A stretch of DNA of 64,000 bases from Myxococcota bacterium (GCA_039028615.1 JBCCHT010000025.1:143948-207947); one strand, 5' to 3'. Numbered from the stretch's first letter, positions 15,440-35,632 are shown. The notes: generated by a model not told the origin, from the sequence alone. Translations and numbers: made by a program.

Positions 15440-16627
15440 TCAGCGGCAGCTCGTCGCGTCTGCGGCGTGCGTCTGCAACACCGCGTGCAGCGAGGCTTCC
15501 ATCAGCTGCTGGGCGTCGTCGCTCGGCAGGTCGATACCCACGTGGATATGCCCCGCCGCGAGCACGTCGGGGTAGGTCCGCGCGTAGGCTAGTCCGTGGA
15601 GCCCGAGGAATCCGCTGAGGTAGTTGCCGCTGGTGCCCGTCTCGTCGATCTCGACCGACGTCAGATCGAGGACCTCGGTCGCCGCGACGATGGCATCGAC
15701 CGGCAGCTCGGTGGGCAGCACGTTGCCCGCCCGCCAGGTGCTGATCGCGTCCCATGAGCGCTCGTCGATGGAGTCGCGGGTGGGGTGTGTCTGGTCGCCG
15801 TAGCCGTCGGAGCTCCAGTCGAACGCGACGGACTCGCCTCCGCCGTGTCCGCCTTCGATCGCCTCGATCTCCCAGCCGATGCTCCCGCCCCGGCTGGTGG
15901 TGATGAGGATGGTCGGCTCGAGCTCGTCGACGATGCGCCAGAAATCCTCCGAGGTCGCCTGGTAGTCCACCTGCAGATCGAAGTCGCGAGAGCCGACGCG
16001 GCCCTCGGAGCCGAAGGGATCGTTGCTGGGGTCGCCGTCGGGCGGGAACTCGGGGAAGAACGCATGGACGTCGTAGCCGTAGCCGCCCCAGTTTTCCCCC
16101 GTCCAGACCCCGTGGTTCTGCTTCGGGTTCGTGCTCCACTGCCGCAGCATCTCGTTGGTCGGCGGCCAGTAGCCCATGAGCACGACGTTCTTCACGCAGG
16201 GTTCTTCGGCCACGCACGTGGCCTCGTAGTCGACGCAGCACGTGCCGGTCTCCTCGCATCCATCGTGGCACTCGCAGCCGCTGGGAGCGACGCCATCGCA
16301 GAACCCGACGCAGCTGGCGAGGTCTTCTTCGCCGCCGTCCTCCGGCTCGCCGCCGCCCGCTTCGTCCGCCTCGACGCACAGGGTTCGGTAGTCGGAACAA
16401 CAATCACCCAGCAGGCTGCATTGCTCGTCGCACCAGCAGGCCTCGCTGCCCGAACCACCGCACGACCGGAAACAGCTCCCCGAGGCGTCGACGTCGGCGC
16501 CCGCGTCCTCCCGTTCGCCTTCGTCCGAGCCCTGGGCCACGCGCCCGTCGTCCTCCACCGCGCAACCGGCCAACAACGAGAGGGCAGCGCCCAGTACAAC
16601 CATGGTCGATGCGTTCGCGATCTTCAT
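15440..16627 (-). CDS. Lipoprotein with two somatomedin-B-like domains and a pyroglutamyl-peptidase (C15)-like domain
   Basis: LAGC lipobox; two SCxxxC...CxCxxxC...CCxDYxxxC modules; VLMGYWPP...SGNYLSGF...AGHIHVG. Confidence 0.65.
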   Translation of the reverse strand: MKIANASTMVVLGAALSLLAGCAVEDDGRVAQGSDEGEREDAGADVDASGSCFRSCGGSGSEACWCDEQCSLLGDCCSDYRTLCVEADEAGGGEPEDGGEEDLASCVGFCDGVAPSGCECHDGCEETGTCCVDYEATCVAEEPCVKNVVLMGYWPPTNEMLRQWSTNPKQNHGVWTGENWGGYGYDVHAFFPEFPPDGDPSNDPFGSEGRVGSRDFDLQVDYQATSEDFWRIVDELEPTILITTSRGGSIGWEIEAIEGGHGGGESVAFDWSSDGYGDQTHPTRDSIDERSWDAISTWRAGNVLPTELPVDAIVAATEVLDLTSVEIDETGTSGNYLSGFLGLHGLAYARTYPDVLAAGHIHVGIDLPSDDAQQLMEASLHAVLQTHAADATSCR

Positions 16628-16840
16628 GACGAGACGCGCGCCCGTCTCCCGCGGGGGCCGGGCGCTGCCAGGACTAGTGCCCCAGCGTCGACGGATCTAT
16701 TCGGCCACGGGCCAATTGCTCGAATTGTGCCTCCAAAGGACCTCTCCGGGTACGAACTCAACCCCTTCGAGCGCCTCGACGCATGGATTCGTGACGGGCA
16801 GCGCAATCCGATCGCGGCCGAGCGAACTCTACGGGGACGT

Positions 16841-18445
16841 ATGAACGCCCCTGCCCCCTCCCCCCGCCTCACCAGCGCACTCGCGGCGATCGGCTTGTCC
16901 GCCGCCCTCCCCTCCATCGCCGCGGCGGCCCCAGCCGACTACCGGGACTCCGTCGAGATGGAGACCGCCGTCGACCTGCTCGACGGCGCCGCGGGTGGGC
17001 GCATGAACGTGTTCACCGTCGGTCTCACCCCCGATGGCCACAAGACCCGCGCGGTGCAGCTGTCGGCCATCGACTCCGGCGGTGCACCCGATGCCGACTC
17101 GGGAGACAAGCCCGCGCTGCTGGTCGAGTGCGGCATGCATGCGCGCGAATGGGCGAGCCCGGAGAGCTGCCTGCTCTTTTTGCAAGGCTTCGCGCTGGCC
17201 GCGATCTTCAATCCCGCGCGGGTCGACGAGATCCTCGAGCATGCCGACATCTGGGTGCTCCCCATGGTCAACCCCGACGGCCGCGACATGGACGATACGG
17301 GCGGCGGCGACCCGACCAACTTCTGGACCAGCACCGCCCTGCACCCGGCGACCTCGTCGGACTCCAACGGCTGGCGAGACAACGCCCAGACCGTCAGCTG
17401 CCCCGCCGCGGTGGGCGGGCTCGGCGTCGGAATCGACCTCAATCGGGCATTTTCCAAGGGCTGGGATAGCGGCGAGACCGACTGCCTCAACAACAAGTTC
17501 CACGGCGAGTGGCCGTTCCAGGCCAAGGAAGCGAGCATCCTGCGTCGCTTCGTCAACAACCGCATGATCTCGATGTCACTGTCCGTGCACAGCTACTCGC
17601 CCTGCGTGGGCGCCCAAAACGGAGACCCCGGCGTGCCGCAGAACTTCCAGAGCATCTGGAACGGGCTCGTGGCCGACCCCAACATGCAGCTGAGCTACAC
17701 CCCGGGCAGCTGCGAGGGCAAAGGCGTCGGTCAGTTCACGGGCTGGATGGCGCGCTCCTCCGATACCGGTTTTCAGCGGGACCACAGCACCGAGCGTGGC
17801 GCGGTGTCCATGCTGCTCGAGCTGCCGCCCAACGGGGCCAGTTACAACGACGCCACCACGCTGTCCCCGTATCGCGATGCCCACGGGGACGGCTCCAACC
17901 CCTTCCACCCCAGCAGCGCCGTGTACATGAACACGGTGGCGACGCCCTTTTTCCAGTCGCTCATGTACCTGGCCGAGCAGGCCCGGTCGCCGTGGTGTGC
18001 CATCGATCCGGCCACGCTCGCGCCCGATCCCTCGTGCACGGAGGACTTCGGCCTCACCGGCTCCAAGATCGCCACCTGCGAGGACTGCATCGGCAAGATG
18101 ATGTTCCGGGACATCGGCGGCCAGACCATCGAGCGCATGAGAGCGGGCGATCGCAGCGTGGTCTATCGCGTGCAGAACTTCGACTCGAGCACCGCGGGCA
18201 CCGTGCAGGTCACCGTCGTGATTTCCTCGCGACCGGCCGGCAGCGGCACCTATAGCACCGACCTCGTCGACACCCAGGTCTTCAGCCTCGCCTCGCAAGA
18301 GGGCGACACGGGCACGGTGCCGTTTTCGTTCACCGCGGGCCGCGACTACATGGTCTCGATCAACACCTGGGCGCTCTCCTTCCCGGGCTCGGACGACACG
18401 AACCCGGACAACGGACACCACCTGTTCCGCTTCGAGACGTTCTGA
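16841..18445 (+). CDS. Secreted M14 zinc carboxypeptidase
   Basis: Signal peptide; GMHAREW (HxxE), VNPDG, IDLNR, SVHSY; start moved to ATG at 16841. Confidence 0.85.
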   Translation: MNAPAPSPRLTSALAAIGLSAALPSIAAAAPADYRDSVEMETAVDLLDGAAGGRMNVFTVGLTPDGHKTRAVQLSAIDSGGAPDADSGDKPALLVECGMHAREWASPESCLLFLQGFALAAIFNPARVDEILEHADIWVLPMVNPDGRDMDDTGGGDPTNFWTSTALHPATSSDSNGWRDNAQTVSCPAAVGGLGVGIDLNRAFSKGWDSGETDCLNNKFHGEWPFQAKEASILRRFVNNRMISMSLSVHSYSPCVGAQNGDPGVPQNFQSIWNGLVADPNMQLSYTPGSCEGKGVGQFTGWMARSSDTGFQRDHSTERGAVSMLLELPPNGASYNDATTLSPYRDAHGDGSNPFHPSSAVYMNTVATPFFQSLMYLAEQARSPWCAIDPATLAPDPSCTEDFGLTGSKIATCEDCIGKMMFRDIGGQTIERMRAGDRSVVYRVQNFDSSTAGTVQVTVVISSRPAGSGTYSTDLVDTQVFSLASQEGDTGTVPFSFTAGRDYMVSINTWALSFPGSDDTNPDNGHHLFRFETF

Positions 18446-19343: not shown

Positions 19344-19515
19344 GATGAAAACCTCGCGGGTAGACAAGCCATGCAAACGATGCCTCTACGATACATCGGC
19401 ATTGCACGCATGGGGACGAGTTCGAGGGCGTCCTGCGGTGGCTCGGCGAACGAGGCTCGAGCCCCGTGTCGTACACCAGGGCCGTTCGCGGCACGACATG
19501 TGCGATGATGGGTTC

Positions 19516-19746
19516 ATGGCGCGTACGTGGGGATGGATGGCATTGACGATGGCGCTGGGGTGCGGCCCCACGATCAGCGTCACCACCGAGGGCTCCGGGT
19601 CGGCCTCGACAGACGCCCCGTCGACGCGCGGGTCGCCCGGGCGGTGGCACGTGCTCCCATGGGCCTCGAGCACGTGGGCATCTGCGTGGACTGACCTCCC
19701 GATTCGATTAACAATGCGTCCGTGCCGGACTACGACGTCTGTGTGA
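19516..19746 (+). pseudogene. Possible truncated lipoprotein remnant
   Basis: MARTWGWMALTMALGCGPTISVTTEGSGS looks like a lipoprotein N-terminus, then degenerates and overlaps the next gene start. Confidence 0.3.
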
Positions 19747-21209
19747 TTGGCGCAGGGCCCGCGGGCTTTGCCGCGGCGATGCGTCTTTGGGACTTCGGGA
19801 AGCGCGTCTGCTTGATCGAGCGCAGTCGGGTGGGCGGCGCAGGGGTGCACAACGGAGCCCTGTCTTCGAAGACGCTGTGGGAGCTTTCGTGCGACTACCG
19901 TCGGGCTCGACGACGCGACCGCGGCTACGTGGCCACCGACCTGCAGGTGCACTTCGAGGCGGTCATGCAGGTCGTGGAAGAGGCGACCGGCACCAAAGAA
20001 GAGCAGATCCAACGGCAGCTTCGCGAGCTCGCCAAGCCGCGCCCCGACGCGCCGGGCTCGATCACCTCGGTGCGCGGCACCGCGAAGTTCCTCGACCCGC
20101 ACACGGTGGAGGTCGAGGGCAGGACCACGGGGGACAGCCGCCGCATCACCGCGGACCACTTCATCATCGCCACCGGTTCGCACCCGCGGGCGCTGCCCGA
20201 CGTGGAGATCGATGGCCGCCGCATCATCACCTCCGATCACATCGGCCGCCTCCAGGGCTTCCCGCGGAGCCTGGTCATCCTGGGCGCGGGCGTGGTGGGC
20301 TGCGAGTTCGCCACCGTCTTCGCCAACTTCGGCCAGACCAAGGTCTACCTCATCGATCGGGCGGAGCGGATCCTGCCCTTCGAAGACGTCGACGTCTCCC
20401 GCGTCTGTGCCACCAACCTCGAGGCCAAGGGCGTCACCGTGCACCACCGCGCCCGGCTGTGCTCGATGCGGGCGGTGGGCGACGAGGTCGAGTACACCAT
20501 CGAGCACCCCACGGGCGGGCGCGAGACCATCCGAGTCGACAACGCGCTGATCTCCATCGGCCGGGTGCCCAACACCCAAAACCTGGGTCTCGAGGAGATC
20601 GGCGTGAAGCTGAGCGAGCGGGGACACATCGATGTCGACGACACCCGCAGCTCGCTGCCCCACATCCATGCGGTGGGGGACGTGACCCTCGACGTGGCCC
20701 TCGTGAGCGTGGGGGAGATCGAGGGGCGGCACGCGGCGGAGATCATCACCGGGCACCGCACCGCTCCGCTCGCGTACGACAACCTGTCCACCATCATGTT
20801 CCTCGACCCGGAGGTCGCCGCGATCGGCCTCAACGAGCAAGAGGCGCAGAAGCAGCGCATTCCGTATCGGGTGGCGGTGTACGGCTACAGCCTCGTCAAC
20901 CGGCCGATCGCGATGCGGGCCACCGAGGGCTTCGTCAAGCTGCTCACCACGGACGACGACGAGCTGCGGATCTTGGGCATGCGCGCGCTGGGAGTGCACT
21001 CGTCGACCATGCTCGAGGCGATCTCGCTGATGATCCAGCACAGTCGCTCGGCCAAGGACCTCGCGGAGCTGCTGCACCCGCACCCCGCCGTGACGGAGGG
21101 GCTGCAAGACTGCGTACGCATGCTGATGGGGACGTCGATCTACAAGCCCTCGGTGTTCAAGTCGGAGCTACGGCTGTCGCGGATCGGCTACGACGACGCC
21201 CCCGAGTAG
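19722..21209 (+). CDS. Class I pyridine nucleotide-disulfide oxidoreductase family protein (Lpd/SthA-like) lacking the redox cysteines
   Basis: GAGPAG, IATGS, GAGVVGCE, AVGD, HPHPAVTE; active-site segment reads GGAGVHNGALSSK. Confidence 0.85.
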   Translation: MPDYDVCVIGAGPAGFAAAMRLWDFGKRVCLIERSRVGGAGVHNGALSSKTLWELSCDYRRARRRDRGYVATDLQVHFEAVMQVVEEATGTKEEQIQRQLRELAKPRPDAPGSITSVRGTAKFLDPHTVEVEGRTTGDSRRITADHFIIATGSHPRALPDVEIDGRRIITSDHIGRLQGFPRSLVILGAGVVGCEFATVFANFGQTKVYLIDRAERILPFEDVDVSRVCATNLEAKGVTVHHRARLCSMRAVGDEVEYTIEHPTGGRETIRVDNALISIGRVPNTQNLGLEEIGVKLSERGHIDVDDTRSSLPHIHAVGDVTLDVALVSVGEIEGRHAAEIITGHRTAPLAYDNLSTIMFLDPEVAAIGLNEQEAQKQRIPYRVAVYGYSLVNRPIAMRATEGFVKLLTTDDDELRILGMRALGVHSSTMLEAISLMIQHSRSAKDLAELLHPHPAVTEGLQDCVRMLMGTSIYKPSVFKSELRLSRIGYDDAPE

Positions 21210-21290
21210 CCGGCTCGTCGCCAGCCCTCCAAGGTTTACCCGACAGTACTTTTTTCGGAACGGTTCGGGCACGCGGGAAACAACCAGCGC

Positions 21291-23084
21291 GTGTCCGCCA
21301 CCGCTCGCTCGCTTCCCGGTTCATCGCTTCTCGAGCTCGGGGTTCGCCGCATCCGAGGGCTGGCGAGCGCATTCGACTTCGGGGTGCCCACCGCCCGGCT
21401 CGAGCAACGTTTCGCCGATGCGATTGGACCCGAGGGTCGTCGCGCGCTCGGTCCCCGGCCGCGGTGGAGCTCCGACATCACCGACGACGGCACGCCGTTC
21501 GAATTCTCGGTGGCCTTCACTCCGCATGGGGCACCGACGCTGCGCCTGCTCTTCGAGGCGCAAGAGCCCGAGACCGCGGACACCCCCGCTCGACGCTGGT
21601 CGGCGGCCTGGCGCACCACCGAGCGCCTGGCCGCGCTCGGGCACGTCGACCTTCAGCGTCTTCATGCCATCGCTCCATGGTTCGAGCCCACCCGAGACTC
21701 CAGCGCCGACTTCGTCCTGTGGCATGCGCTCGATCTCAGCCAGCCCGAAGGCGAAGACGCGACCCTCAAGGTGTATCTCAACCCACGCGTGCACGGAGAT
21801 GCGGGGGCGCCCGCCCTCGTGGAGCGGGCGCTCGTTCGGCTCGGCCATGCCGACGCGTGGGCCGACCTGGTCGCTCGCCTCGCGAGGCACGGCGAGCATC
21901 GTTTCCAGTACCTGTCCCTCGATCTCGGCGCGAACGAGTCGGCGCGCACCAAGATCTACGTCGCCCACCACGGGGTGTCGGCCGATCGCCTCGAGCGAGT
22001 CTTCGAAGGGAGTGAAGGCTACGGGGCGGGCGATGCCACGCGGTGGTGCCGGTCGGTCCTCGGGGGGCCCGGTCCCTACGAGCGACGCCCCGTGCTGTCG
22101 TGTTTCGCCTTCTCCCGCCGCACACCCGCTCCCGTCGGTACGCTTCACCTGCCCGTGCGCTGCTACGCCGAGGACGACGCCGCCAGTGCGCGCCGCATCC
22201 TCGCTCACCTGCCCGCGGCCGCAGCCACGCACTATCTCGATGCAGTGGAGGCGTTCTCCGCTCGCCCCCTCGGGGCAGGCCAAGGGCTCCAGACCTACGC
22301 CTCGTTTCGCCGGGAGCGCTCGGCACAGAGACTGACCGTGTACCTCGCCCCCGAAGGCTACGCGGTGCCCCGATCGGAGACACCGACCACGCTCGCCTCC
22401 ATCGATCGCGTGGTCCTGGGGCACGCCAAGCGGCTGGCCACCACCCCCTTTTGCCGAAGGCTCGAAGGCCCCGCCTCGCTCCACGACTTCCGCCGCTTCT
22501 CCCGGGGCCTGAGCTTCTACGTCATGGCGTTTCAAGACATGCTGCGCTTGTGCACCGAGCGGGTGACCGAGCCTCGCCTCGAGCGCATCGCCGCGACGCA
22601 CCAGCGAGAGGACGCGGGACACGAGCAGTGGTTCGTGCACGACCTGCGCCACGTCGGTGAAGAACCCGACCTATCGTGGCTCTTCGGTCCCGAGCACCAG
22701 CCGATTCGAGACATCACCTACGGGATGCTCTCCGAGCTACACCGCACCTGCGACGACCGAGTCCGGCTCGCAGTGGTACTGGCGCTCGAGGGTGCGGGCC
22801 ACGTCTTCTTCAGCCGCGTCGTGAACTACACCGAGCGCATGGACGCGGACCTTCCGCTCCGGTACTTCGCGCGACACCACCTGGAGGTGGAACGAGCCCA
22901 CGAGGTGTTCTCCGACGACGGCGAGGTGAGCCTGGAGGACATCACGCTCGAGCCGGAGGCATTCGCGGAGGCCGTGGCCATGGTCTCGCGGATCTTCGAC
23001 GGCTTCACGCGCATGGCGGCCGACCTCGAAGCCGGGCTCTCGGTCCGCCCCGACGCCGTGCTCGCCGAGGGGAGGCCCCAATGA
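21291..23084 (+). CDS. Tryptophan dimethylallyltransferase (DMATS/ABBA family) fused to a heme-oxygenase-like diiron (AetD-like) domain
   Basis: N-part: DDGTPFEFS, LKVYLNP, YLSLDL, RTKIYV, LTVYLAP; C-part from about 22390: HQREDAGHEQWF, LALEGAG, YFARHHLEVERAH. Confidence 0.8.
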   Translation: MSATARSLPGSSLLELGVRRIRGLASAFDFGVPTARLEQRFADAIGPEGRRALGPRPRWSSDITDDGTPFEFSVAFTPHGAPTLRLLFEAQEPETADTPARRWSAAWRTTERLAALGHVDLQRLHAIAPWFEPTRDSSADFVLWHALDLSQPEGEDATLKVYLNPRVHGDAGAPALVERALVRLGHADAWADLVARLARHGEHRFQYLSLDLGANESARTKIYVAHHGVSADRLERVFEGSEGYGAGDATRWCRSVLGGPGPYERRPVLSCFAFSRRTPAPVGTLHLPVRCYAEDDAASARRILAHLPAAAATHYLDAVEAFSARPLGAGQGLQTYASFRRERSAQRLTVYLAPEGYAVPRSETPTTLASIDRVVLGHAKRLATTPFCRRLEGPASLHDFRRFSRGLSFYVMAFQDMLRLCTERVTEPRLERIAATHQREDAGHEQWFVHDLRHVGEEPDLSWLFGPEHQPIRDITYGMLSELHRTCDDRVRLAVVLALEGAGHVFFSRVVNYTERMDADLPLRYFARHHLEVERAHEVFSDDGEVSLEDITLEPEAFAEAVAMVSRIFDGFTRMAADLEAGLSVRPDAVLAEGRPQ

Positions 23085-24436
23085 GCGAGCCCGAGGTGCA
23101 CCGCGACGAAGCCACACGCTCGAGCCATGCGCGGGACTTCGGCGGCATCGTGACCGCGACGCCGGCCGGGGTCGCGCGGCCCGAGACGATCGACGACGTC
23201 CTCACCCTCATGAAGTGGGCACTGGCTCGAGGGTTGACGGTGACGCCGCGCGGCGGCGGTCAGAGCCAGAGCGGGCAGTCGCTGTCCGAGGGCGGCATCG
23301 TCATGGCGATGGAAGGCATGCGTCGGCTCGAGGTCGACCTCGTCCGGGGCCGAGCGCGATGCGGGCCGGGCGTGCGCCTACGAGAGCTGCTCGCCTACTG
23401 CACCCCCGCCGGGTGGAGTCCCCCGGTCGTACCGCTCAACCTCGATCTCACCGTGGGCGGCGTGCTCAGTGCGGGCGGCGTGGGCTCGTCGAGCCATGGC
23501 TGCGGACCCGCGATCGAGCACATCGAGTCGGTGGTCGTGGTCACGGGCGAAGGCGAACGCGTCGAAGCGACACCGCAGCACAACCGAGCGCTCTTCGACG
23601 CGGTGCTCGGGGGTGCAGGACGCTGCGCGGTGCTGTGCGAGGCCACCTTCATCCTCCGCCGCGCGCAGCCATCCGTGCGGACCTACAGCCTGCTCTTTGC
23701 CGACTTCGCCGAGGCCCTCGAAGCACAACGACGACTGACCGAAGCCAGGTGCACCCATCTCGAGGGTTTCGCCACTTCGGCGATGATGGGCACACGAACG
23801 ACACCCGGCGGCTCGCGACGGGCCTTTGCCCGGTGGTTTCACGGGATTCATGTGAGTTTCGAATACGCGGGGTCTTCCGCGCCCGAGCTGCCCGCCGAGC
23901 TGCCGGGGTCACCCGAGGTCGTGGCCACCGACGATGACGATCTGCTCGGGCACGCCGCCCGCTACGACCTCCGATTCCAGGCCATGCGCGCCACCGGGGC
24001 CGACCGCCAGCTCCACCCGTGGTTCGAGGCGCTCATCCCCTTGGAGGCCGCAACGGCACTGATTCCCGAACTGCTGCAGTCACAGCCACCGTGGCTCGGC
24101 GATGGGCACCGCGAGACGCTCTTCGCGGATCGCCGCACCCGCCCCTTTTTCGCCACGCCCGGCGGACCTGCGATCGCGTTCACCATCCTACCCCTGGGCG
24201 TCCCCGAGGCGCTGCGTGAACCGACGCTGCAGTGGCTCACCGCGCTAGACCGACGCGTCCACGAACTCGGCGGCAAGCGTTACCTCTCCGGTTGGCTGCC
24301 CGACCGCAGCCCCCCCCGATGGCGCGCCCACTTCGGCGAGTCCTTCGATTCGTGGCAGGCGTGCAAGCGACGGTTCGACCCCCGCGGGTGTCTGTCGTCG
24401 CGCATGTTCGCCGCCCTCGATGCCGAGCCAGAGTGA
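23081..24436 (+). CDS. FAD-linked oxidoreductase (VAO/PCMH fold, cytokinin-dehydrogenase-like)
   Basis: RDFGGIV, RGGGQSQSGQ, LTVGGVLSAGG, LFDAVLGG, HPWF, KRRFDP; ATGA overlap and GGAGG at 23071. Confidence 0.85.
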   Translation: MSEPEVHRDEATRSSHARDFGGIVTATPAGVARPETIDDVLTLMKWALARGLTVTPRGGGQSQSGQSLSEGGIVMAMEGMRRLEVDLVRGRARCGPGVRLRELLAYCTPAGWSPPVVPLNLDLTVGGVLSAGGVGSSSHGCGPAIEHIESVVVVTGEGERVEATPQHNRALFDAVLGGAGRCAVLCEATFILRRAQPSVRTYSLLFADFAEALEAQRRLTEARCTHLEGFATSAMMGTRTTPGGSRRAFARWFHGIHVSFEYAGSSAPELPAELPGSPEVVATDDDDLLGHAARYDLRFQAMRATGADRQLHPWFEALIPLEAATALIPELLQSQPPWLGDGHRETLFADRRTRPFFATPGGPAIAFTILPLGVPEALREPTLQWLTALDRRVHELGGKRYLSGWLPDRSPPRWRAHFGESFDSWQACKRRFDPRGCLSSRMFAALDAEPE

Positions 24437-24530
24437 CACCGACATCGCGGTGCCCCCCGCGCCGTGGCGAAGACCACCGCGCAGTTCGAAACTACGTAAC
24501 ACCTCGCCCGAGATGCGGTATGCACCCAGC

Positions 24531-25133
24531 ATGCGAACGCTCCCGCTCCTCGTCGTGATGGCTCTCGCCGCGTGCAACAGCAACGCCCCCGCCGCCAGCA
24601 ACGCCAAGGACGAGTCGGCCAAGGCCAAACCCGCGGAGCCCAAGGGGCCCGTGCTCGACCAGACCGTCAAGATGCTCGACGGCTCGGACAAGAAGCTCTC
24701 CGACTACCGCGGCAAGGCCCTGCTGGTGGTCAATACGGCCTCCGAGTGCGGCTACACCCCGCAGTACGCCGGGATGCAGAAGCTCTACGGCGAGTACAAG
24801 GATCGCGGGCTCGAGGTCTTGGCGTTCCCGTCGAACGACTTCGGCGCTCAAGAGCCCGGCACGCCGGAGCAGATCCGCGAGTTCGTCGACGACAACTACT
24901 CGGTGGAGTTCGCCATGTTCGACAAGGTGAGCACCAAGGGGCCCGATCAGTCGCCCGTCTATCAGATGCTCACCGAGCAGACGGGCGAAGGCCTCACGGG
25001 CGAGATCGAGTGGAACTTCACCAAGTTCATCGTCGACCCCGAAGGCCGCGTCGTGGCTCGCTTCGGCTCGAAGGTGGAGCCCAACGATCCGAAGCTGATC
25101 GAGGCGCTCGAGAAGGTGCTCCCGAGCGCCTGA
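24531..25133 (+). CDS. Glutathione peroxidase family lipoprotein
   Basis: LAAC lipobox; VNTASECGYTPQY, FPSNDFGAQE, WNFTKF. Confidence 0.92.
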   Translation: MRTLPLLVVMALAACNSNAPAASNAKDESAKAKPAEPKGPVLDQTVKMLDGSDKKLSDYRGKALLVVNTASECGYTPQYAGMQKLYGEYKDRGLEVLAFPSNDFGAQEPGTPEQIREFVDDNYSVEFAMFDKVSTKGPDQSPVYQMLTEQTGEGLTGEIEWNFTKFIVDPEGRVVARFGSKVEPNDPKLIEALEKVLPSA

Positions 25134-25149
25134 GCTCCCCCATCGGCGC

Positions 25150-26136
25150 TCACTCGGCTTCGGCGTCGACGGCCGCGTCGGCGTGCGCCCGCAAGATCGC
25201 AGCCTCGTCGGCGGATAGCGAGTCGGGCCACCACGTGTTGTCGGCGACCGGCTCGTCGAGCAGCACGCGGGTGAACACGGCGGTGGCGAGGTAGGAACCG
25301 GCCACGTTGCGGTGACTGCCATCGCCCGAGTGCAAGACGATCTCCGGGTTCATCGCCAGCGAGCGCTCCCACGCCTGCCCCACCGGGGCCAGCGTGCCGC
25401 CGACATCGACGGCGACCCCGTCGTAGGCCTCGTGCAGCAGCGCCTGCATGCCGGCCGGGCCCCCGCCCGACCACGGCTCGTCGTAGATCTCGTGCCCCGC
25501 GATGCGAGCCCAGGTCTCGAACATCACGGGCTCGGCCCCCGCCCCTTGGGCCAGCATCGACAGATCGACCGCCGCATTGTGGAAGGTGTTGGGCTGAACG
25601 AGCGGCTCGTAGCTCTGCCCCTGGATGATGACGAAATCCCAGGTCTCGTTCATCAGCGAGTCTTGCACGTCGGGCCGGGCGAACAGATCGGCCACGGTCG
25701 CTCCGCCCTGAGTGACGGCGGCGATGAAGAAGTCGCGCCCCGCCGCCGTGGTCATCTGCAGGACCATGGAGGACATGCCGTTACCTGCGGTGTAGCTGTT
25801 GCCCAGCATCAAGACGCGCCCGTCGGTGCCGGGGCCTTCGGTCTCCTCGGGCGTGCCCGTCGAGTCCTCGCCGATGGAGGTCGCGCTGGTCTCGACGCTG
25901 CCGGTCGACCCCGAGGTGCTGCCCGCGGTGCTCGTGCTGCCCGCGGTGCTGGTCGTGCCCGGAGACGGGTCGGTGGTGACGCTGGCCCCCTCCCCGCCCG
26001 TCGTGACCGCGTCCCCCGTGCTGGTCGAGGCGGCGTCGGCGTGAATGTTCCCGTCGTCGCCACACCCCGGACTGCCCAGGGCAACCGCGACGAGTAGAGC
26101 GACAGGAACGGAGGCGAGGCGAACGAATGCAGACAT
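25150..26136 (-). CDS. SGNH/GDSL hydrolase family lipoprotein
   Basis: SPGC lipobox-like site; LMLGNSYT, WDFVIIQ, DGSH. Confidence 0.75.
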   Translation of the reverse strand: MSAFVRLASVPVALLVAVALGSPGCGDDGNIHADAASTSTGDAVTTGGEGASVTTDPSPGTTSTAGSTSTAGSTSGSTGSVETSATSIGEDSTGTPEETEGPGTDGRVLMLGNSYTAGNGMSSMVLQMTTAAGRDFFIAAVTQGGATVADLFARPDVQDSLMNETWDFVIIQGQSYEPLVQPNTFHNAAVDLSMLAQGAGAEPVMFETWARIAGHEIYDEPWSGGGPAGMQALLHEAYDGVAVDVGGTLAPVGQAWERSLAMNPEIVLHSGDGSHRNVAGSYLATAVFTRVLLDEPVADNTWWPDSLSADEAAILRAHADAAVDAEAE

Positions 26137-30736: not shown

Positions 30737-31023
30737 GTCCCACCTCGCAGCACCTCGACGTTCGGCGTTGCGAGTCGATCGGAAACGAACGGGACCCAAT
30801 GTGGCCTCATCAAGGACACATCGGTCGGTCGTGTGCGCAGCGTCTCTACGTGACGGCGTCGCCGCCAACTTCGGCGGGGCGCTGAGTCCATTGCGCCCGA
30901 TTTCATTCGATTTCAAACAGCGTTTTTCGGGCTCAGACTGCGGCACAATGGCCGGAAGTCGGCGTGAACCGTCGAGTCTCTCGACGATTTCATTGCCGGT
31001 GCCCCCAACGCCCCGACGAACAG

Positions 31024-31737
31024 ATGATCAGGACGATCGACGAAACTGCTCGAGCCCAGCTCTTGCTGGTCGAAGACACGCCCGAGCTCGCCCATGCCCT
31101 CCTTCGCCTGCTGAACCGCGCCGGCTTGTTGGTGGTGCACGCGGGCAACTTCACCGAGGCCCGCGCGGTGATCGACGATCCCGCCAGCCAATTCGACGCC
31201 GCCATCCTCGATCACCACCTGCCCGATGGGGACTCGCGCGCGCTGGTCTCTGCCCTCGCCCAGAAAGAGCCCGGCTGTAGCTCGCTGGTGCTCACGGGCG
31301 TCGGCGACCCCGGGCTCGCCAAGGACTATCGCGGGCGTGGGGCTTTCCGCTACGTCGCCAAGCCGGTGAAGGGCGCCCAGCTGTTGGCCCACGTGCACGC
31401 CACGATGCTCGACACCCATCGCTGGCGCGCGGCGGGCATGCCGACCACGTACGTGCCGTCGCCGCCCGCCGTCGTCGTCGACGTCGAGGCCGCCGCCGAT
31501 CGGCTGCGCTTTTTGGCCCGGCTTTCACCCACCGAACGCGAGGTCGCCTACTGGCTCTTGCAAGGGCTGCGCGACGCCCAGATCGCCCGACTGCTGGGGC
31601 GAGCCGAGCGCACCGCCAAGCGACACGTGGGGCAGGTGCTGTCGAAGGTCGGCGTGCAGAACCGATCGAGCCTGTGGGCGGTGCTCCGCAACGACGCCGA
31701 TCACCAGCCGCCCTCGGAAGTCACCACCGCGCTGTGA
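31024..31737 (+). CDS. Response regulator with LuxR-type HTH
   Basis: LLVED, ILDHHLPDG, LTG, YVAKP receiver motifs; LSPTEREVA...TAKRHV HTH. Confidence 0.88.
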   Translation: MIRTIDETARAQLLLVEDTPELAHALLRLLNRAGLLVVHAGNFTEARAVIDDPASQFDAAILDHHLPDGDSRALVSALAQKEPGCSSLVLTGVGDPGLAKDYRGRGAFRYVAKPVKGAQLLAHVHATMLDTHRWRAAGMPTTYVPSPPAVVVDVEAAADRLRFLARLSPTEREVAYWLLQGLRDAQIARLLGRAERTAKRHVGQVLSKVGVQNRSSLWAVLRNDADHQPPSEVTTAL

Positions 31738-31804
31738 ATGTGAAAGAGAACCCCTCGACCGAGGGGCTCTCAGCCATCGAGTACGTCGACATGCTCGATG
31801 CGAC

Positions 31805-32227
31805 ATGAAACTGCCGCGACTGTCTCCTCGCTTTGCGTCCATTGGTCTCGCTCGCGATACTCGCCGGTCGGCGGGGATCGGTCCGCAGACCTTCTGCAGC
31901 GTGAATCGCCTGACGGACATCGACGGGTGGGTGGGCGACGCGGCGCAGACCGGCTGCTACGACTCGGCCGCGTTCTCGACCCAGCAGAGCCGGTCCGCGA
32001 ACAACCGAACCACGGGCATGTACATCCTCTCGACCGCGTACGCGCGCGGGCTCGGCTATCACAAGGTGGGCATCATCGACGGTGGCGACGACACCAACGC
32101 GGTGTGCCACATCCCGACGCAGCACGGGATCCCGCGCGACGGCCAGAACCTGACGTGCAGCGGGAAGGTCTCCGGGACGTACTACTCGTACAACAACCTG
32201 TACTCCGAGCAGATCGACTTGAACTGA
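31805..32227 (+). CDS. Hypothetical protein, possibly the C-terminal remnant of a longer gene
   Basis: From about 31880 the codons are GC3-rich and the sequence is protein-like (Cys/Tyr/Asn-rich); the first 25 or so residues look non-coding. Confidence 0.4.
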   Translation: MKLPRLSPRFASIGLARDTRRSAGIGPQTFCSVNRLTDIDGWVGDAAQTGCYDSAAFSTQQSRSANNRTTGMYILSTAYARGLGYHKVGIIDGGDDTNAVCHIPTQHGIPRDGQNLTCSGKVSGTYYSYNNLYSEQIDLN

Positions 32228-32358
32228 CCCCAGTGGCGGCAGCGGCGGCGGAGTCATCGAGAGCCGTCCTGCCAGTGGCCGCCGCCCTCGAACGCGAATC
32301 TAACCGGCTAAAATCAATACACTTTTAGCCTCTGTAGAGTTTTGCCGGACAAAGTCCT

Positions 32359-32395
32359 GGTAGAACGCGTTCTACCGAAGTAGAACACGTTCTAC
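32359..32395. promoter_or_regulatory. Tandem palindromic operators matching the KstR-type consensus TnnAACnnGTTnnA
   Basis: GGTAGAACGCGTTCTACC (32359-32376, perfect 18-bp palindrome) and GTAGAACACGTTCTAC (32380-32395), ending 5 nt before the P450 ATG. Confidence 0.8.
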
Positions 32396-32400
32396 CTTAC

Positions 32401-33795
32401 ATGACTGCGTTGCCCCAGACCCCCGGTCGCCCCCTCGTGGGCCATCTGTTCGACGTCCTCAAGCGCGGCATGTATCCGCTGCTGCGCGAGCACTGGCTCG
32501 AGCACGGCGATGCCTTCTCGCTTCGCGTGGGGCCGAAGCAGCTGGCCGCGTTCATCCACCCCGACGCGGTCGAAGCCATCTACGTCACCCAGCGAGCCTC
32601 GTTCGTCAAAGGCGATGGCTACGACGCGATCCGGCTATTGGTCGGCGATGGCGTGCTGACGGTGGAAGGCGAGACGTGGAAGCAGCAGCGCCGCACGATC
32701 CAGCCGTGCATGAACCGCTCGTTCCTCAAGGGCTTCGCCACGCCGATGGTGCAGGCCGCGGTCGACATGCTCGACGACTGGTCCGATCGCGACGTCGAGA
32801 CGCTCGACATCTATCCCGAGATGCTCCACCTCGCCCTGCGCATCCTGGGCCAGACGCTCTTCAGCGTGGACCTGCGCAGCAGCGCCGACGTGTCGGCCGA
32901 GGCCTTCACCGTCGCCCTGGAAGAGCTCTCGCAGCGAGGCAATCAGCTGTTCGCGCCGCCGCTGTGGTGGCCGAGCCCCAGCAACATCCGGCTCCGCCGG
33001 GCCCTGCGTCAGCTCGACGAGATCGTCTATCAGATGATCGACAGCCGGGCTGCCTCTCGCGACGCGGGCGAGGAACAACCCGCCGACTTGATCTCGCTGT
33101 TGCTCGATCACCGCGACGACGATGGCCAACCGCTCGACCGACGCCTGGTGCACGACGAGATCATCACCATGTTCCTCGCGGGGCACGAGACGACCGGGCT
33201 GGCGCTGACCTGGACCTGGTACCTGCTGTCGCTGCACCCCGATGCCGAGGCGCAGCTGCACGAGGAAGTCGATCGAGTGTTGGGCGGCCGCCTGCCCACC
33301 ATCGACGACCTGCCGCAGCTCGAGTACACCAAGCGGATCTTGCAGGAGTCCATGCGCCTGCTGCCCCCCGTGTGGAGCGGGGGCCGAAGCGTCTCGGGCG
33401 AGGTCGAGCTGAGCGGCTACCCGCTGCACGACGGCCAGATGGCGATGGTCTGCCCCTTCCTGACGCATCGACACCCGGAGTTCTGGAGCCACCCCGAGGC
33501 CTTCGACCCGCGCCGCTTCGAGGCCGCCAACCTCCGTGGGCGTCACAAGTACGCCTACTTCCCGTTCAGCGCGGGGCCGCGCATGTGCGTGGGCAATCAC
33601 TTCACCATGATCGAAGCCCAGCTCGTCATGGCCGTGGTCGCGCAGCGCTACCGCTTCGATCTGCGGCCGGGGCACCTGGTCGAGCGCGATCACCAGATCA
33701 CCATGCGACCTCGTCACGGCATGCAGATGTTGCTGCGCCGCCGCGACCAGGCCGCGGCCGTGTTCGACCCCCAACCGCGGAGGGCATCGGCCTGA
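32401..33795 (+). CDS. Cytochrome P450
   Basis: AGHETT (I-helix), ESMR (ExxR), FDPRRF, FSAGPRMCVG (heme Cys). Confidence 0.96.
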   Translation: MTALPQTPGRPLVGHLFDVLKRGMYPLLREHWLEHGDAFSLRVGPKQLAAFIHPDAVEAIYVTQRASFVKGDGYDAIRLLVGDGVLTVEGETWKQQRRTIQPCMNRSFLKGFATPMVQAAVDMLDDWSDRDVETLDIYPEMLHLALRILGQTLFSVDLRSSADVSAEAFTVALEELSQRGNQLFAPPLWWPSPSNIRLRRALRQLDEIVYQMIDSRAASRDAGEEQPADLISLLLDHRDDDGQPLDRRLVHDEIITMFLAGHETTGLALTWTWYLLSLHPDAEAQLHEEVDRVLGGRLPTIDDLPQLEYTKRILQESMRLLPPVWSGGRSVSGEVELSGYPLHDGQMAMVCPFLTHRHPEFWSHPEAFDPRRFEAANLRGRHKYAYFPFSAGPRMCVGNHFTMIEAQLVMAVVAQRYRFDLRPGHLVERDHQITMRPRHGMQMLLRRRDQAAAVFDPQPRRASA

Positions 33796-33809
33796 TACCG
33801 TGTTCGCAC

Positions 33810-34424
33810 GTGCCCGCGCCCGCCGCCCCGGTCGAGCCCCTCGACATCGAAGAGCCCCGCACGCGGCGGATCGTCGAAGTCGCGCTCGAGCTGGCCGAGG
33901 AGGGGGGCTTTGCCGCCGTTCGCCTGCGCACCGTGGCCGAGCGGGCCGGGGTCGCGCTGCGCACCCTGTACAAGCGCTTCCCCAGCAAGGACGACCTGCT
34001 CTTTGCCGTGCTCGTGGGCGAGCTGGTGCGGCTCGAGCAGCTCCTCGACGAGCGACCGGTGACGGGCAAGACCGCGGTCATTCGCCTGCGCGGGCTCTTC
34101 GAGACCCTCACCGAGTTCCTCTGCGGCCGCCCCAAGCTCGGGCAGGCCATCTTCCGCACCCTCGGCGGCGGCGCGAGCACCCTGCCCCACAAGGTCGGGG
34201 CGTTTCACAACCGCGTCGACGCGCTCATCATCGGCGCGATTCGGGGTGACGACGAGCAAGCGCCCAGCGACCCCGCGCACCCGCACCAGCGCCTGGCCGC
34301 GATGCTCCAGCACGTGTGGTTTTCGAGCCTCGTCGGCTGGGCGGGCGGGGTGCACCCCCCGGAGATGATCGTCGAGGCGGTGATCGACGCCGCGGCGCTC
34401 GTGCTCGAGCGCCCCGACGCATAG
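33810..34424 (+). CDS. TetR-family regulator, KstR-like
   Basis: RRIVEVALELAEEGGFAAVRLRTVAERAGVALRTLYKRFPSKDDLL HTH; C-terminal HVWFSSLVGW; in-frame GTG at 33810. Confidence 0.85.
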   Translation: MPAPAAPVEPLDIEEPRTRRIVEVALELAEEGGFAAVRLRTVAERAGVALRTLYKRFPSKDDLLFAVLVGELVRLEQLLDERPVTGKTAVIRLRGLFETLTEFLCGRPKLGQAIFRTLGGGASTLPHKVGAFHNRVDALIIGAIRGDDEQAPSDPAHPHQRLAAMLQHVWFSSLVGWAGGVHPPEMIVEAVIDAAALVLERPDA

Positions 34425-34479
34425 CGAGATGCCCGGCTCCGCGCGCACGGAGCCAGGGATGGCGCTTCGAGGGTCGCCC

Positions 34480-35460
34480 CTACCAGCGCAGGACGGTGCC
34501 GCCCCAGGTGAAGCCGGTTCCGAACGCGGTCATCACCACCACCGAGCCGTCTTGGATGCGCCCCTCGGTGCGGGCTTCGTGCATCGCCACGGGAATCGTC
34601 GCCGCCGACATGTTCCCGTACTTGTGCACGACCATGTACATCTTGTCCTTGGACACCCCAGCCCGCTCGCGGGCGACTTCCATGATGCGGATGTTCGCCT
34701 GGTGCGGGATGAACAGGTCGACGTCGTCGGAGCCGATCTCGGCTTCCTTCATCGCCGTGGTCGCGGCCTTGGACATCGCGGTGACGGCGTGGCGGAACAC
34801 CGTGCTGCCTTCCATGTGCACGGTGTGGTCGAGGTTCTCCACCGTCTCGTGCGTGGCCGGCTTCCGAGTGCCGCCCGCCGGCTGGTAGAGGATCGGGGCC
34901 AGGTTGCCATCGGCGCCCCAGTTGGACGCCAGCACGCCGCTGTCGCCCTTGGTCGCCGCGATGACGGCCGCGCCCGCGCCATCCCCGAACAGGACGCAGG
35001 TGCTGCGGTCCTTCCAGTTGACCACCTTGCTCATCACCTCGCCGCCCACGACCCCGACACGCTGGGCGGTGCCGGAGTTCACCAGGGCAGCAGCGAGCTC
35101 GAGACCATAGAGGAAGCCCGAGCAGCCCGCGCTCACGTCGAAGGCGGCGGGGCCACTGAGACCGAGCTTGCCCTGCACCCAGCAGGCGGTGGAGGGGAAC
35201 AGCGTATCGGCGGTGGAGGTGCCGACGATGATGGCATCGAGGGCTTGGGGCTCGAGCCCCGCATCGGTGCAGGCGTTGCGGAGCGCCTCCGCGCACAGGT
35301 CCGACGTCGACACATCGTCGGCTGCAATGCGGCGCTCCTTGATGCCCGTGCGACCCGTGATCCACTCGTCGCTGGTGTCCACCATCTTCTCGAGATCCGA
35401 GTTGGTGAGCACTTTGGGCGGCAACGCCGTTCCGGTACCGACGATCTTGAGGTTCTTCAA
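34480..35460 (-). CDS. fabH: 3-oxoacyl-ACP synthase III
   Basis: DTSDEWI, DVSAGCSGF (Cys), PHQAN (His), YGNMS (Asn), LFGDGAGA; probable TTG start at 35460. Confidence 0.93.
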   Translation of the reverse strand: MKNLKIVGTGTALPPKVLTNSDLEKMVDTSDEWITGRTGIKERRIAADDVSTSDLCAEALRNACTDAGLEPQALDAIIVGTSTADTLFPSTACWVQGKLGLSGPAAFDVSAGCSGFLYGLELAAALVNSGTAQRVGVVGGEVMSKVVNWKDRSTCVLFGDGAGAAVIAATKGDSGVLASNWGADGNLAPILYQPAGGTRKPATHETVENLDHTVHMEGSTVFRHAVTAMSKAATTAMKEAEIGSDDVDLFIPHQANIRIMEVARERAGVSKDKMYMVVHKYGNMSAATIPVAMHEARTEGRIQDGSVVVMTAFGTGFTWGGTVLRW

Positions 35461-35632
35461 GCGAGCTGTGCGCCCATCACGCGACGGCGCTCCTTCGCCC
35501 GTGTATGCCGTACCGGCCAACGGCTGGTCAACCGGTCGAGCCGCGGCCTCCGGTCGATCTTCCCGAGATCACGAGGTTTGCAAACCAACGTGGGAACATT
35601 CACCCATTGCGAGGCGTCTGCAGCGAAGCGCC

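Follow-up and report, generated by a model that had tools for sequence, protein, structure and literature searches.

Heme-oxygenase-like diiron oxidases (HDOs) form a young and fast-growing class of enzymes, in which AetD and SktA run two unprecedented reactions on one ligand set. AetD converts the β-carbon of its substrate into a nitrile, with an aldehyde as shunt product and glyoxylate or glycolate as the released fragment, according to the accessible part of the published account (PMC11611611). SktA, from Nostoc punctiforme NIES-2108, keeps the β-carbon as a methyl group and yields 5-bromoskatole, cyanide and bicarbonate (PMC11869266). The SktA paper also records AetD homologues ‘across various genomic contexts’, all of unknown function, and places AetD beside a tryptophanase, the latter only implied, in the aetokthonotoxin pathway. 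Among actinomycete pairs, the available text describes IptA, which together with a tryptophanase gives 6-dimethylallylindole (6-DMAI)-3-carbaldehyde, and SCO7467, which together with SCO7468 gives 5-dimethylallylindole-3-acetonitrile (PMC3617294). Here, we describe a two-gene locus in a 64,000-nucleotide stretch of DNA from a Myxococcota bacterium (GCA_039028615.1, JBCCHT010000025.1:143948-207947), called the window below, with positions counted from its first letter. Judged by its sequence, gene 1 (21291..23084, + strand) is a tryptophan dimethylallyltransferase (DMATS)-type prenyltransferase joined in frame to a heme-oxygenase-like diiron oxidase, and gene 2 (23081..24436, +) is a full-length cytokinin-oxidase-like flavoprotein of the VAO superfamily. 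We propose, with a probability of about 45%, that these two genes form a three-domain cassette in which tryptophan is prenylated, its alanyl chain is cut to a one-carbon group at C3, and a flavin-dependent dehydrogenation follows, giving a modified prenyl-indole.

Gene 1 is a bifunctional open reading frame (ORF) of 597 aa with a GTG start, supported by the ORF list and its translation, by the aligned N-termini of 12 homologues and by Pfam. Its protein is exactly database entry P0003, annotated with Pfam families PF11991 and PF14518. The GC content of the window is 66–73%, and GC at third codon positions (GC3) is 0.82 across the whole gene 1 frame. The motifs that the original prediction, made from the sequence alone, had read from this ORF (DDGTPFEFS, KVY, KIY, H-x2-E-D-x2-H, LALEGAG and H-x3-E-x2-H) are all in place. 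The N-terminal half proves to be the DMATS domain it was taken for (aa 40–360; 21408..22370, +), as called from Pfam, NCBIfam and PDB matches and from residue conservation. Trp_DMAT (PF11991) matches aa 52–306 with 84.6 bits against a cut-off of 25 (E 1.2e-23), and TIGR03429 of NCBIfam matches with 139.8 bits (E 1.4e-40), under its subfamily cut-off of 163.85. The closest solved relative is a bacterial DMATS, PDB 6zrx, aligned over aa 40–360 at E 7.8e-37, with further matches to PriB, 6-DMATS and CymD; we take the top PDB relatives to be 5- and 6-DMATS enzymes. In the DMATS family, the glutamate of the TPxEFS motif is catalytic, and basic and tyrosine residues bind the diphosphate and shield the carbocation. 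DDGTPFEFS lies at aa 65–73 of gene 1, KVY at 160–162 and KIY at 221–223, and across 13 fusion proteins E71, R85, Y162, K221, Y223, Y292 and Y351 are invariant, with K160 kept in 12 of the 13. Bacterial DMATS enzymes that share 59% identity are already split between C5 and C6 prenylation, as stated in the part of the source available (PMC3617294). A short linker (22371..22385, +), delimited by alignment, joins the two domains; its length varies in homologues, with insertions of up to ~40 aa (alignment columns 380–430).

The second half of the protein is an AetD-like heme-oxygenase-like diiron oxidase domain, which we designate class I (aa 366–581; 22386..23033, +), on the combined evidence of profile match, AetD homology and an AlphaFold2 (AF2) model. 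Comparison of the C-terminal 237 aa with all PDB sequences returned AetD as the sole match below E 0.1 (E 5e-8). A profile built from 15 such domains recovers AetD at E 5e-16 over its whole length, with BesC next at 0.019. The AF2 model, with a pLDDT confidence of 90.4, contains 11 helices, in agreement with the helical domain of about 230 aa that had been predicted. In a Foldseek search with this model, AetD fills ranks 1–21 with TM-scores of 0.76–0.80, and BesC and CADD come next at 0.56–0.61, so that the expected superposition on AetD is borne out.

The metal site of AetD is recognizable in full. According to the accessible part of the structural report, AetD binds Fe1 through H79, H172 and E176 and Fe2 through D76, E140, E176 and H179, while Y167 hydrogen-bonds the substrate carboxylate, F44 and I146 clamp the indole, and S214 lies at C7 (PMC10654658). 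In the HMMER alignment, which also locates the features that follow, the six ligands D76, H79, E140, H172, E176 and H179 align to D441, H444, E500, H530, E534 and H537, matching the AetD ligand spacing given in the original prediction. D441 and H444, the counterparts of D76 and H79, sit in the motif H437-x2-E440-D441-x2-H444 (22599..22622, +). E500 of LALEGAG (22788..22790, +) corresponds to the Fe2 ligand E140, and H530-x3-E534-x2-H537 (22878..22901, +) supplies the equivalents of H172, E176 and H179. Y525 (22863..22865, +) stands at the position of the carboxylate-binding Y167.

These residues are conserved across a large set of relatives. An exhaustive profile search with the oxidase domain yielded 658 representative clusters with E no higher than 1e-3, of which 191 reach E ≤ 1e-30; the residue and architecture counts given here refer to the best 150. 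The D441 column holds D in 139 and E in 8 of these, and the E500 column E in 148 and D in 2; histidine occupies the H444, H530 and H537 columns in 148, 148 and 146, and glutamate the E534 column in 147. For 146 representatives the alignment spans the full set of six positions; 134 of them show exact D-H-E-H-E-H, and a further 8 show E-H-E-H-E-H. The Y525 column is Y in 126 and F in 21, and an arginine, R473 in window numbering, is present in 150 of 150. At ~20% identity, the alignment places Y410, still aromatic, at F44 of the indole clamp, with I146 and S214 both changed, to F506 and F572. Taken together, the residues suggest that the amino-acid binding mode of AetD is probably kept. In the tails of some other DMATS fusions (P0012, P0013, P0021 and P0022), metal ligands are lost, and the tail there may be a structural domain.

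Gene 2 (451 aa, ATG start) encodes a cytokinin-oxidase-like FAD oxidase, which we call FADox_A, an assignment drawn from Pfam, PDB sequences, AF2 and Foldseek results and synteny. Its start at 23081 sits within the gene 1 stop codon TGA (23082–23084), giving the ATGA overlap that had been predicted, and direct reading of the sequence finds a translational coupling element (23069..23084, +) made of a Shine-Dalgarno-like GGGGAGG (23069–23075), a 5-nt spacer and the ATGA. A promoter and terminator scan of 19400–25600 gave no signal above chance. FAD_binding_4 is found at E 1e-28, consistent with the VAO fold originally proposed, and the best PDB sequences are plant cytokinin oxidases (CKX), at E 5.9e-30 and 23–25% identity. 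The AF2 model (pLDDT 81) retrieves only cytokinin oxidases at Foldseek ranks 1–34 (TM-score 0.77–0.81), and DprE1 comes next. The likeness to EasE in the original prediction does not hold: we reject an EasE/BBE-type identity because the Pfam scan found no BBE domain, the match to PpBBE-like 1 (E 4e-10) is far weaker than that to CKX, and the Foldseek ranking is occupied by CKX. One FADox_A gene, L038:2235-3578, has a single internal stop and may be a pseudogene or reflect a sequencing error.

Fusion of these parts recurs across the oxidase subfamily. The oxidase stands alone in 108 of the 150 clusters, many of these entries stemming from short metagenome contigs. It follows a DMATS in 33 (DMATS-HDO), is joined to the flavoprotein in 4 (HDO-FADox), and occurs as FADox-DMATS-HDO in 3, DMATS-HDO-FADox in 1 and HDO-DMATS in 1. 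A k-mer-based protein search returned ~15 fusion clusters, including a 1012-aa FADox-DMATS-HDO protein and a 696-aa HDO-FADox protein. On a FastTree phylogeny of 140 oxidase domains, from which rows with <85% coverage and the duplicate P0003 were omitted, the fused or unfused state changes at least 18 times, and at least 7 of these changes are forced by well-supported branches. Such repeated fusion and fission is a classical sign that DMATS, oxidase and flavoprotein work together. The subfamily, comprising the 191 clusters at E ≤ 1e-30, appears to be a third, divergent branch beside AetD and SktA. A DMATS-AetD fusion had been thought undescribed, and our full-text literature searches, whose coverage mostly leaves out subscription journals, found neither a description of one nor any account of myxobacterial AetD homologues; the 33 clusters make clear, however, that the fusion is no singleton. 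The words ‘prenyl’ and ‘fusion’ are absent from the text of the SktA paper, one of its supplementary files (PMC11869266) and a 2026 review, and ‘myxo’ from the paper text and that file.

A tblastn survey, supplemented with Pfam scans, covered 41 loci and the window, with class I defined as at least 33% identity to the window oxidase domain. The related loci come nearly all from Polyangiaceae, Sandaracinaceae and other Myxococcota metagenome-assembled genomes (MAGs), and in Polyangia genomes the DMATS, the oxidase and the flavoprotein co-occur, fused or split. DMATS and class I oxidase share a single frame in the window and 9 of 18 loci and are separate genes in 8. A cytokinin-oxidase-like gene is present in 15 of the 18 class I loci within the stretches fetched; three loci with DMATS and class I oxidase (L002, L016 and L019) showed none in the stretches examined. 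Type 1 cassettes, with DMATS and class I oxidase and FADox_A directly downstream, comprise the window, L005, L008, L029, L030, L036, L037, L038 and L041, and L007, L009 and L020 add a second flavoprotein, FADox_B, upstream. In type 1b (L001, L012, L013 and L015), FADox_B accompanies DMATS and class I oxidase. Type 2 (L004, L006, L011 and L021–L025) combines FADox_B, a tryptophanase-like β-eliminating lyase of ~468 aa, a conserved 140-aa protein with no Pfam family match and a DMATS with a class II tail, which is a different or degenerate heme-oxygenase-like domain (e.g. L021:992-6245 and L022:4556-9755). Type 3 (L003, L010, L045 and L046) consists of FADox_B, DMATS and a stand-alone class III oxidase, which is far nearer to AetD (E 3.8e-33), with a cytochrome P450 as well in L045 and L046. 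Only DMATS and a tryptophanase-like lyase are found in L017 (Umezawaea, an actinomycete) and L028.

The distribution of partners across these types is informative. FADox_A was directly downstream of, or fused to, a class I oxidase in 12 of 12 cases and never accompanied tryptophanase-type or class III cassettes. As a check, the original prediction had suggested looking for split or fused homologues with the same flavoprotein neighbour, including in Sandaracinus; FADox_A lies directly downstream of a class I oxidase in 11 other loci, and the fusion in the Sandaracinaceae MAG L012 stands with FADox_B in the stretch fetched. Ten related DMATS loci have a tryptophanase-like lyase in place of the oxidase, and none of the ten carries a class I oxidase. 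The position beside DMATS is thus a side-chain-processing slot, filled by either an AetD-like oxidase or a tryptophanase-like lyase. The window genome encodes a single DMATS and lacks both a FADox_B orthologue and a class III oxidase, so the cassette is present there in minimal form. Occurrence is patchy, with a query match in 7 of 24 genomes of the window’s family and 13 of 32 of the family of L012, which is a different one. The cassette is, in short, a new and widespread variant of known enzyme kinds that is conserved in Polyangia.

Two loci depart from these arrangements. At L020 (7974-11849), a 604-aa DMATS ORF keeps ~250 aa past the DMATS domain and a separate 676-aa protein fuses class I oxidase to FADox_A, which puts two oxidase-type modules at one locus. 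In the Polyangiaceae MAG L019 (8926-11776), a PALP-family pyridoxal phosphate (PLP) enzyme separates DMATS from class I oxidase, with an aminotransferase next in line; the 18.6 kb examined contain no cytokinin-oxidase-like gene.

The pathway that we favour builds on the observed domain identities, intact metal site, gene coupling and conserved trio. As expected of its family, the DMATS domain would move the dimethylallyl group of dimethylallyl diphosphate to the indole ring of L-tryptophan. By homology to AetD, the diiron domain would then bind prenyl-tryptophan at Fe1 through its amino and carboxylate groups, activate O2 and cut the alanyl chain, keeping the β-carbon alone at C3. Finally, the flavoprotein may abstract a hydride from a CH2 that adjoins the heteroaromatic system. 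The substrate of CKX carries a dimethylallyl group on such a system, and because the CKX-like fold oxidizes the isopentenyl CH2 on a heteroaromatic ring, the simplest site would be dimethylallyl C1′, yielding a 3-methylbuta-1,3-dienyl or hydroxylated side chain and H2O2. The swap of lyase for oxidase, together with the actinomycete and aetokthonotoxin parallels, supports an order in which tryptophan is prenylated before its alanyl chain is processed. In aetokthonotoxin biosynthesis, AetD and the tryptophanase are both said to take the same halogenated tryptophan. The pathway logic of the original prediction is plausible in outline, with qualifications at two steps. A one-carbon nitrile or aldehyde at C3 has AetD as precedent but is not the sole option, given that SktA produces skatole and cyanide; by analogy, a carbonitrile or aldehyde shunt product may tentatively be named as the outcome of the diiron step, a methyl group with cyanide and CO2 is a distinctly less probable one, and the largest share falls to something else. 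Oxidation of the prenyl group is plausible by analogy with CKX, but FADox_A occurs only beside class I oxidase, so its job may lie in side-chain chemistry rather than at the prenyl group.

Several observations weigh against this pathway or weaken the assignments behind it. The oxidase domain shares only ~20% identity with AetD, and its match to Haem_oxygenas_2 (PF14518) scores 25.2 bits, under the threshold of 28.9, which some relatives pass (e.g. P0005 at 32.3 bits). AetD and SktA have shared ligands and different products, so homology does not fix the product; position 142, one of the active-site positions at which the two differ, is variable among the 150 relatives (A in 67, T in 40, S in 12), and the family may therefore not share a single outcome. 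On the flavoprotein side, Cytokin-bind scores 19.2 bits against a cut-off of 23, and the histidine of the GHGHS motif of cytokinin oxidases, which we take to be the covalent FAD anchor, is a glutamine in gene 2 (GGGQS); this residue, Q63, is invariant in 8 FADox_A sequences. FADox_B is the general DMATS partner, found in all cassette types, and FADox_A and FADox_B stand together in L007, L009 and L020, so FADox_A may not be the prenyl-modifying enzyme.

The last point leads to a different division of labour, which we regard as unlikely but as a serious rival, in which the two oxidases share the AetD reaction and leave the prenyl group untouched. The diiron domain would perform a first O2-dependent step, rearranging or cleaving the chain to give a secondary amine, an imine or an amine at the C3 carbon, and the flavoprotein would dehydrogenate the C–N bond, as cytokinin oxidases do with N6-isopentenyladenine. 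The exclusive pairing of FADox_A with class I oxidase in all 12 cases, the four HDO-FADox fusions among the 150 representatives and the three loci with both flavoproteins, which implies different jobs for them, all fit such a split. The available portion of a mechanistic study of AetD moreover proposes that the enzyme must activate O2 twice, the branch point being a nitrogen-inserted intermediate (PMC11611611). Set against this, AetD and SktA complete their reactions unaided, and L001, L012, L013 and L015 carry FADox_B alone in the stretches fetched, so FADox_A is not obligatory. A broader version of the same idea, to which we also give a low probability, is that class I oxidase and FADox_A carry out a conversion of the tryptophan side chain new to the AetD/SktA family. 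Rearrangement or cleavage would fall to the diiron enzyme and C–N oxidation to the flavoenzyme, and the fusion would hand over prenyl-tryptophan directly, giving a new type of prenyl-indole in a widespread group of uncultured Polyangia. An SktA-like reaction, in which prenyl-tryptophan would yield prenyl-3-methylindole, cyanide and CO2, likewise seems improbable; the volatile indole or the cyanide would perhaps be useful to a predator living in soil. SktA, an AetD homologue of 39% identity whose predicted ligands are the same, yields 5-bromoskatole (PMC11869266), and F572 of the window occupies the position of AetD S214, which is F in SktA too. The 2026 review names M139/A142 of AetD and T139/T142 of SktA as differing active-site positions, and their counterparts L499 and A502 in the window resemble AetD rather than SktA, a tilt toward an AetD-like outcome that is weak either way, with two residues at ~20% identity.

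A still less probable alternative is that the whole side chain is removed, by the diiron domain alone or with another enzyme, to leave an indiacen-type indole with a prenyl or dienyl group and an unsubstituted C3. An indiacen-like product had been part of the original prediction. Indiacens come from Sandaracinus, and a class I fusion occurs in the Sandaracinaceae MAG L012; two genomes of the family of L012 also carry FADox_B, DMATS, a closer AetD homologue and a P450. The accessible part of the synthetic report gives indiacen B as 4-(4-chloro-3-methylbuta-1,3-dienyl)indole, synthesized from 4-iodoindole (PMC4660955). The product named there lacks a C3 substituent, whereas both characterized homologues, AetD and SktA, retain the β-carbon, so a reaction of their kind would not lead straight to an indiacen, and the link to indiacens is indirect and weaker than claimed. 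No P450 adjoins the window cassette, the nearest being 8 kb off and 25% identical, and none of the cassettes showed a halogenase. The type 2 cassette would suit a 3-unsubstituted prenyl- or dienyl-indole, and tryptophanase-type cassettes account for such an indole more simply. Literature searches turned up no indiacen gene cluster. A candidate locus for indiacen biosynthesis is the cassette of L045 (6901-13459) and L046 (5443-11894), two single-contig genomes of ~10.3 and 10.75 Mb from the family of L012, in which FADox_B, a C-terminally extended DMATS, a 159-aa ORF, the AetD-closer oxidase and a P450 occur together. By far the least probable reading is that the fusion arose from misassembly or a frameshift, or that its C-terminal domain is a dead remnant. 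Degenerate ligand sets do exist in some relatives (P0012, P0013, P0148 and P0036), but the window retains the complete set of six; the frame is unbroken with uniform GC3, and the same architecture is seen in 33 of 150 clusters from independent assemblies and in 9 fetched loci. These data contradict the artefact that the original prediction had allowed for.

The locus has wider implications. Fusion to a prenyltransferase and a flavoenzyme lets the substrate of a divergent oxidase branch be guessed and makes the enzyme open to direct assay. The cassette types suggest a modular scheme for myxobacterial prenyl-indoles, in which one prenyltransferase is combined with a swappable class I oxidase, a closer AetD homologue with P450, or a tryptophanase. 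They also give candidate genes for the indiacen pathway and a possible biocatalytic route to nitriles or aldehydes of prenylated indoles.

The genes around the cassette in the window encode a disulfide oxidoreductase (19722-21209), a glutathione peroxidase (24420-25133), a DUF4886 protein and a penicillin amidase. The 25 related loci contain none of the flanking genes, and the unit is therefore taken to be gene 1 plus gene 2. The disulfide oxidoreductase and the glutathione peroxidase flank the gene for a predicted H2O2-producing oxidase; we rejected them as pathway members on account of this absence and because the peroxidase seems to be a secreted lipoprotein. The most likely start of the peroxidase is the ATG at 24531, with a lipoprotein-type signal, MRTLPLLVVMALAAC. 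Further downstream, 6–11 kb away, 30886-35568 encodes a LuxR-type response regulator, a P450 and a KAS III homologue, which are not conserved beside the cassette elsewhere. This P450 resembles pentalenene/albaflavenone oxygenases at E about 1e-76, far under the equivalog cut-offs. On the opposite strand, a frame at 15440-16696 (-) contains two Somatomedin B domains, unusual in bacteria; it overlaps the start of an M14 carboxypeptidase ORF at 15785-18445 (+), and one of the two calls may be overlong or spurious.

Among described systems, the actinomycete clusters, as set out in the accessible text, have a bacterial DMATS that prenylates L-tryptophan and a neighbouring enzyme that reworks the alanyl chain, a pairing that the locus is proposed to share; there, that enzyme is a tryptophanase, a PLP lyase, or a flavin monooxygenase, whereas the window has a fused diiron oxidase and a cytokinin-oxidase-like flavoprotein. 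Plant CKX (PDB 4ML8, 4O95 and 3S1C) resemble the gene 2 product in fold over their whole length (TM-score about 0.8) and act in a purine context, unlike the indole pathway proposed for gene 2. EasE from ergot biosynthesis belongs to the same VAO/PCMH superfamily but to a different subfamily. EasE and BBE-like flavoenzymes have been proposed to oxidize ring-bound dimethylallyl groups of aromatic compounds to dienes. Indiacens A and B of Sandaracinus are myxobacterial indoles with a prenyl-derived dienyl group, as the proposed product might have, and differ in being without the C3 carbon, in the part of the report available (PMC4660955). SktA is, like the window domain, an AetD homologue, acts on a substituted tryptophan and demonstrates that outcomes vary within the family. 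It differs in standing alone in a halogenase cluster, and was compared here through its published residues, T139/T142 against L/A in the window. Closest of all is AetD, the aetokthonotoxin nitrile synthase of the cyanobacterium Aetokthonos hydrillicola (PDB 8JI2 and 8TWW), which has the same seven-helix heme-oxygenase-like fold, an identical set of three histidines and three carboxylates in the unusual H-H-E order, and the same carboxylate-contacting tyrosine. AetD acts on halogenated L-tryptophan, whereas the substrate of the window enzyme is presumably prenylated L-tryptophan, and the myxobacterial domain is fused to the enzyme that would decorate the ring and coupled to a flavoprotein, a partner that AetD can do without.

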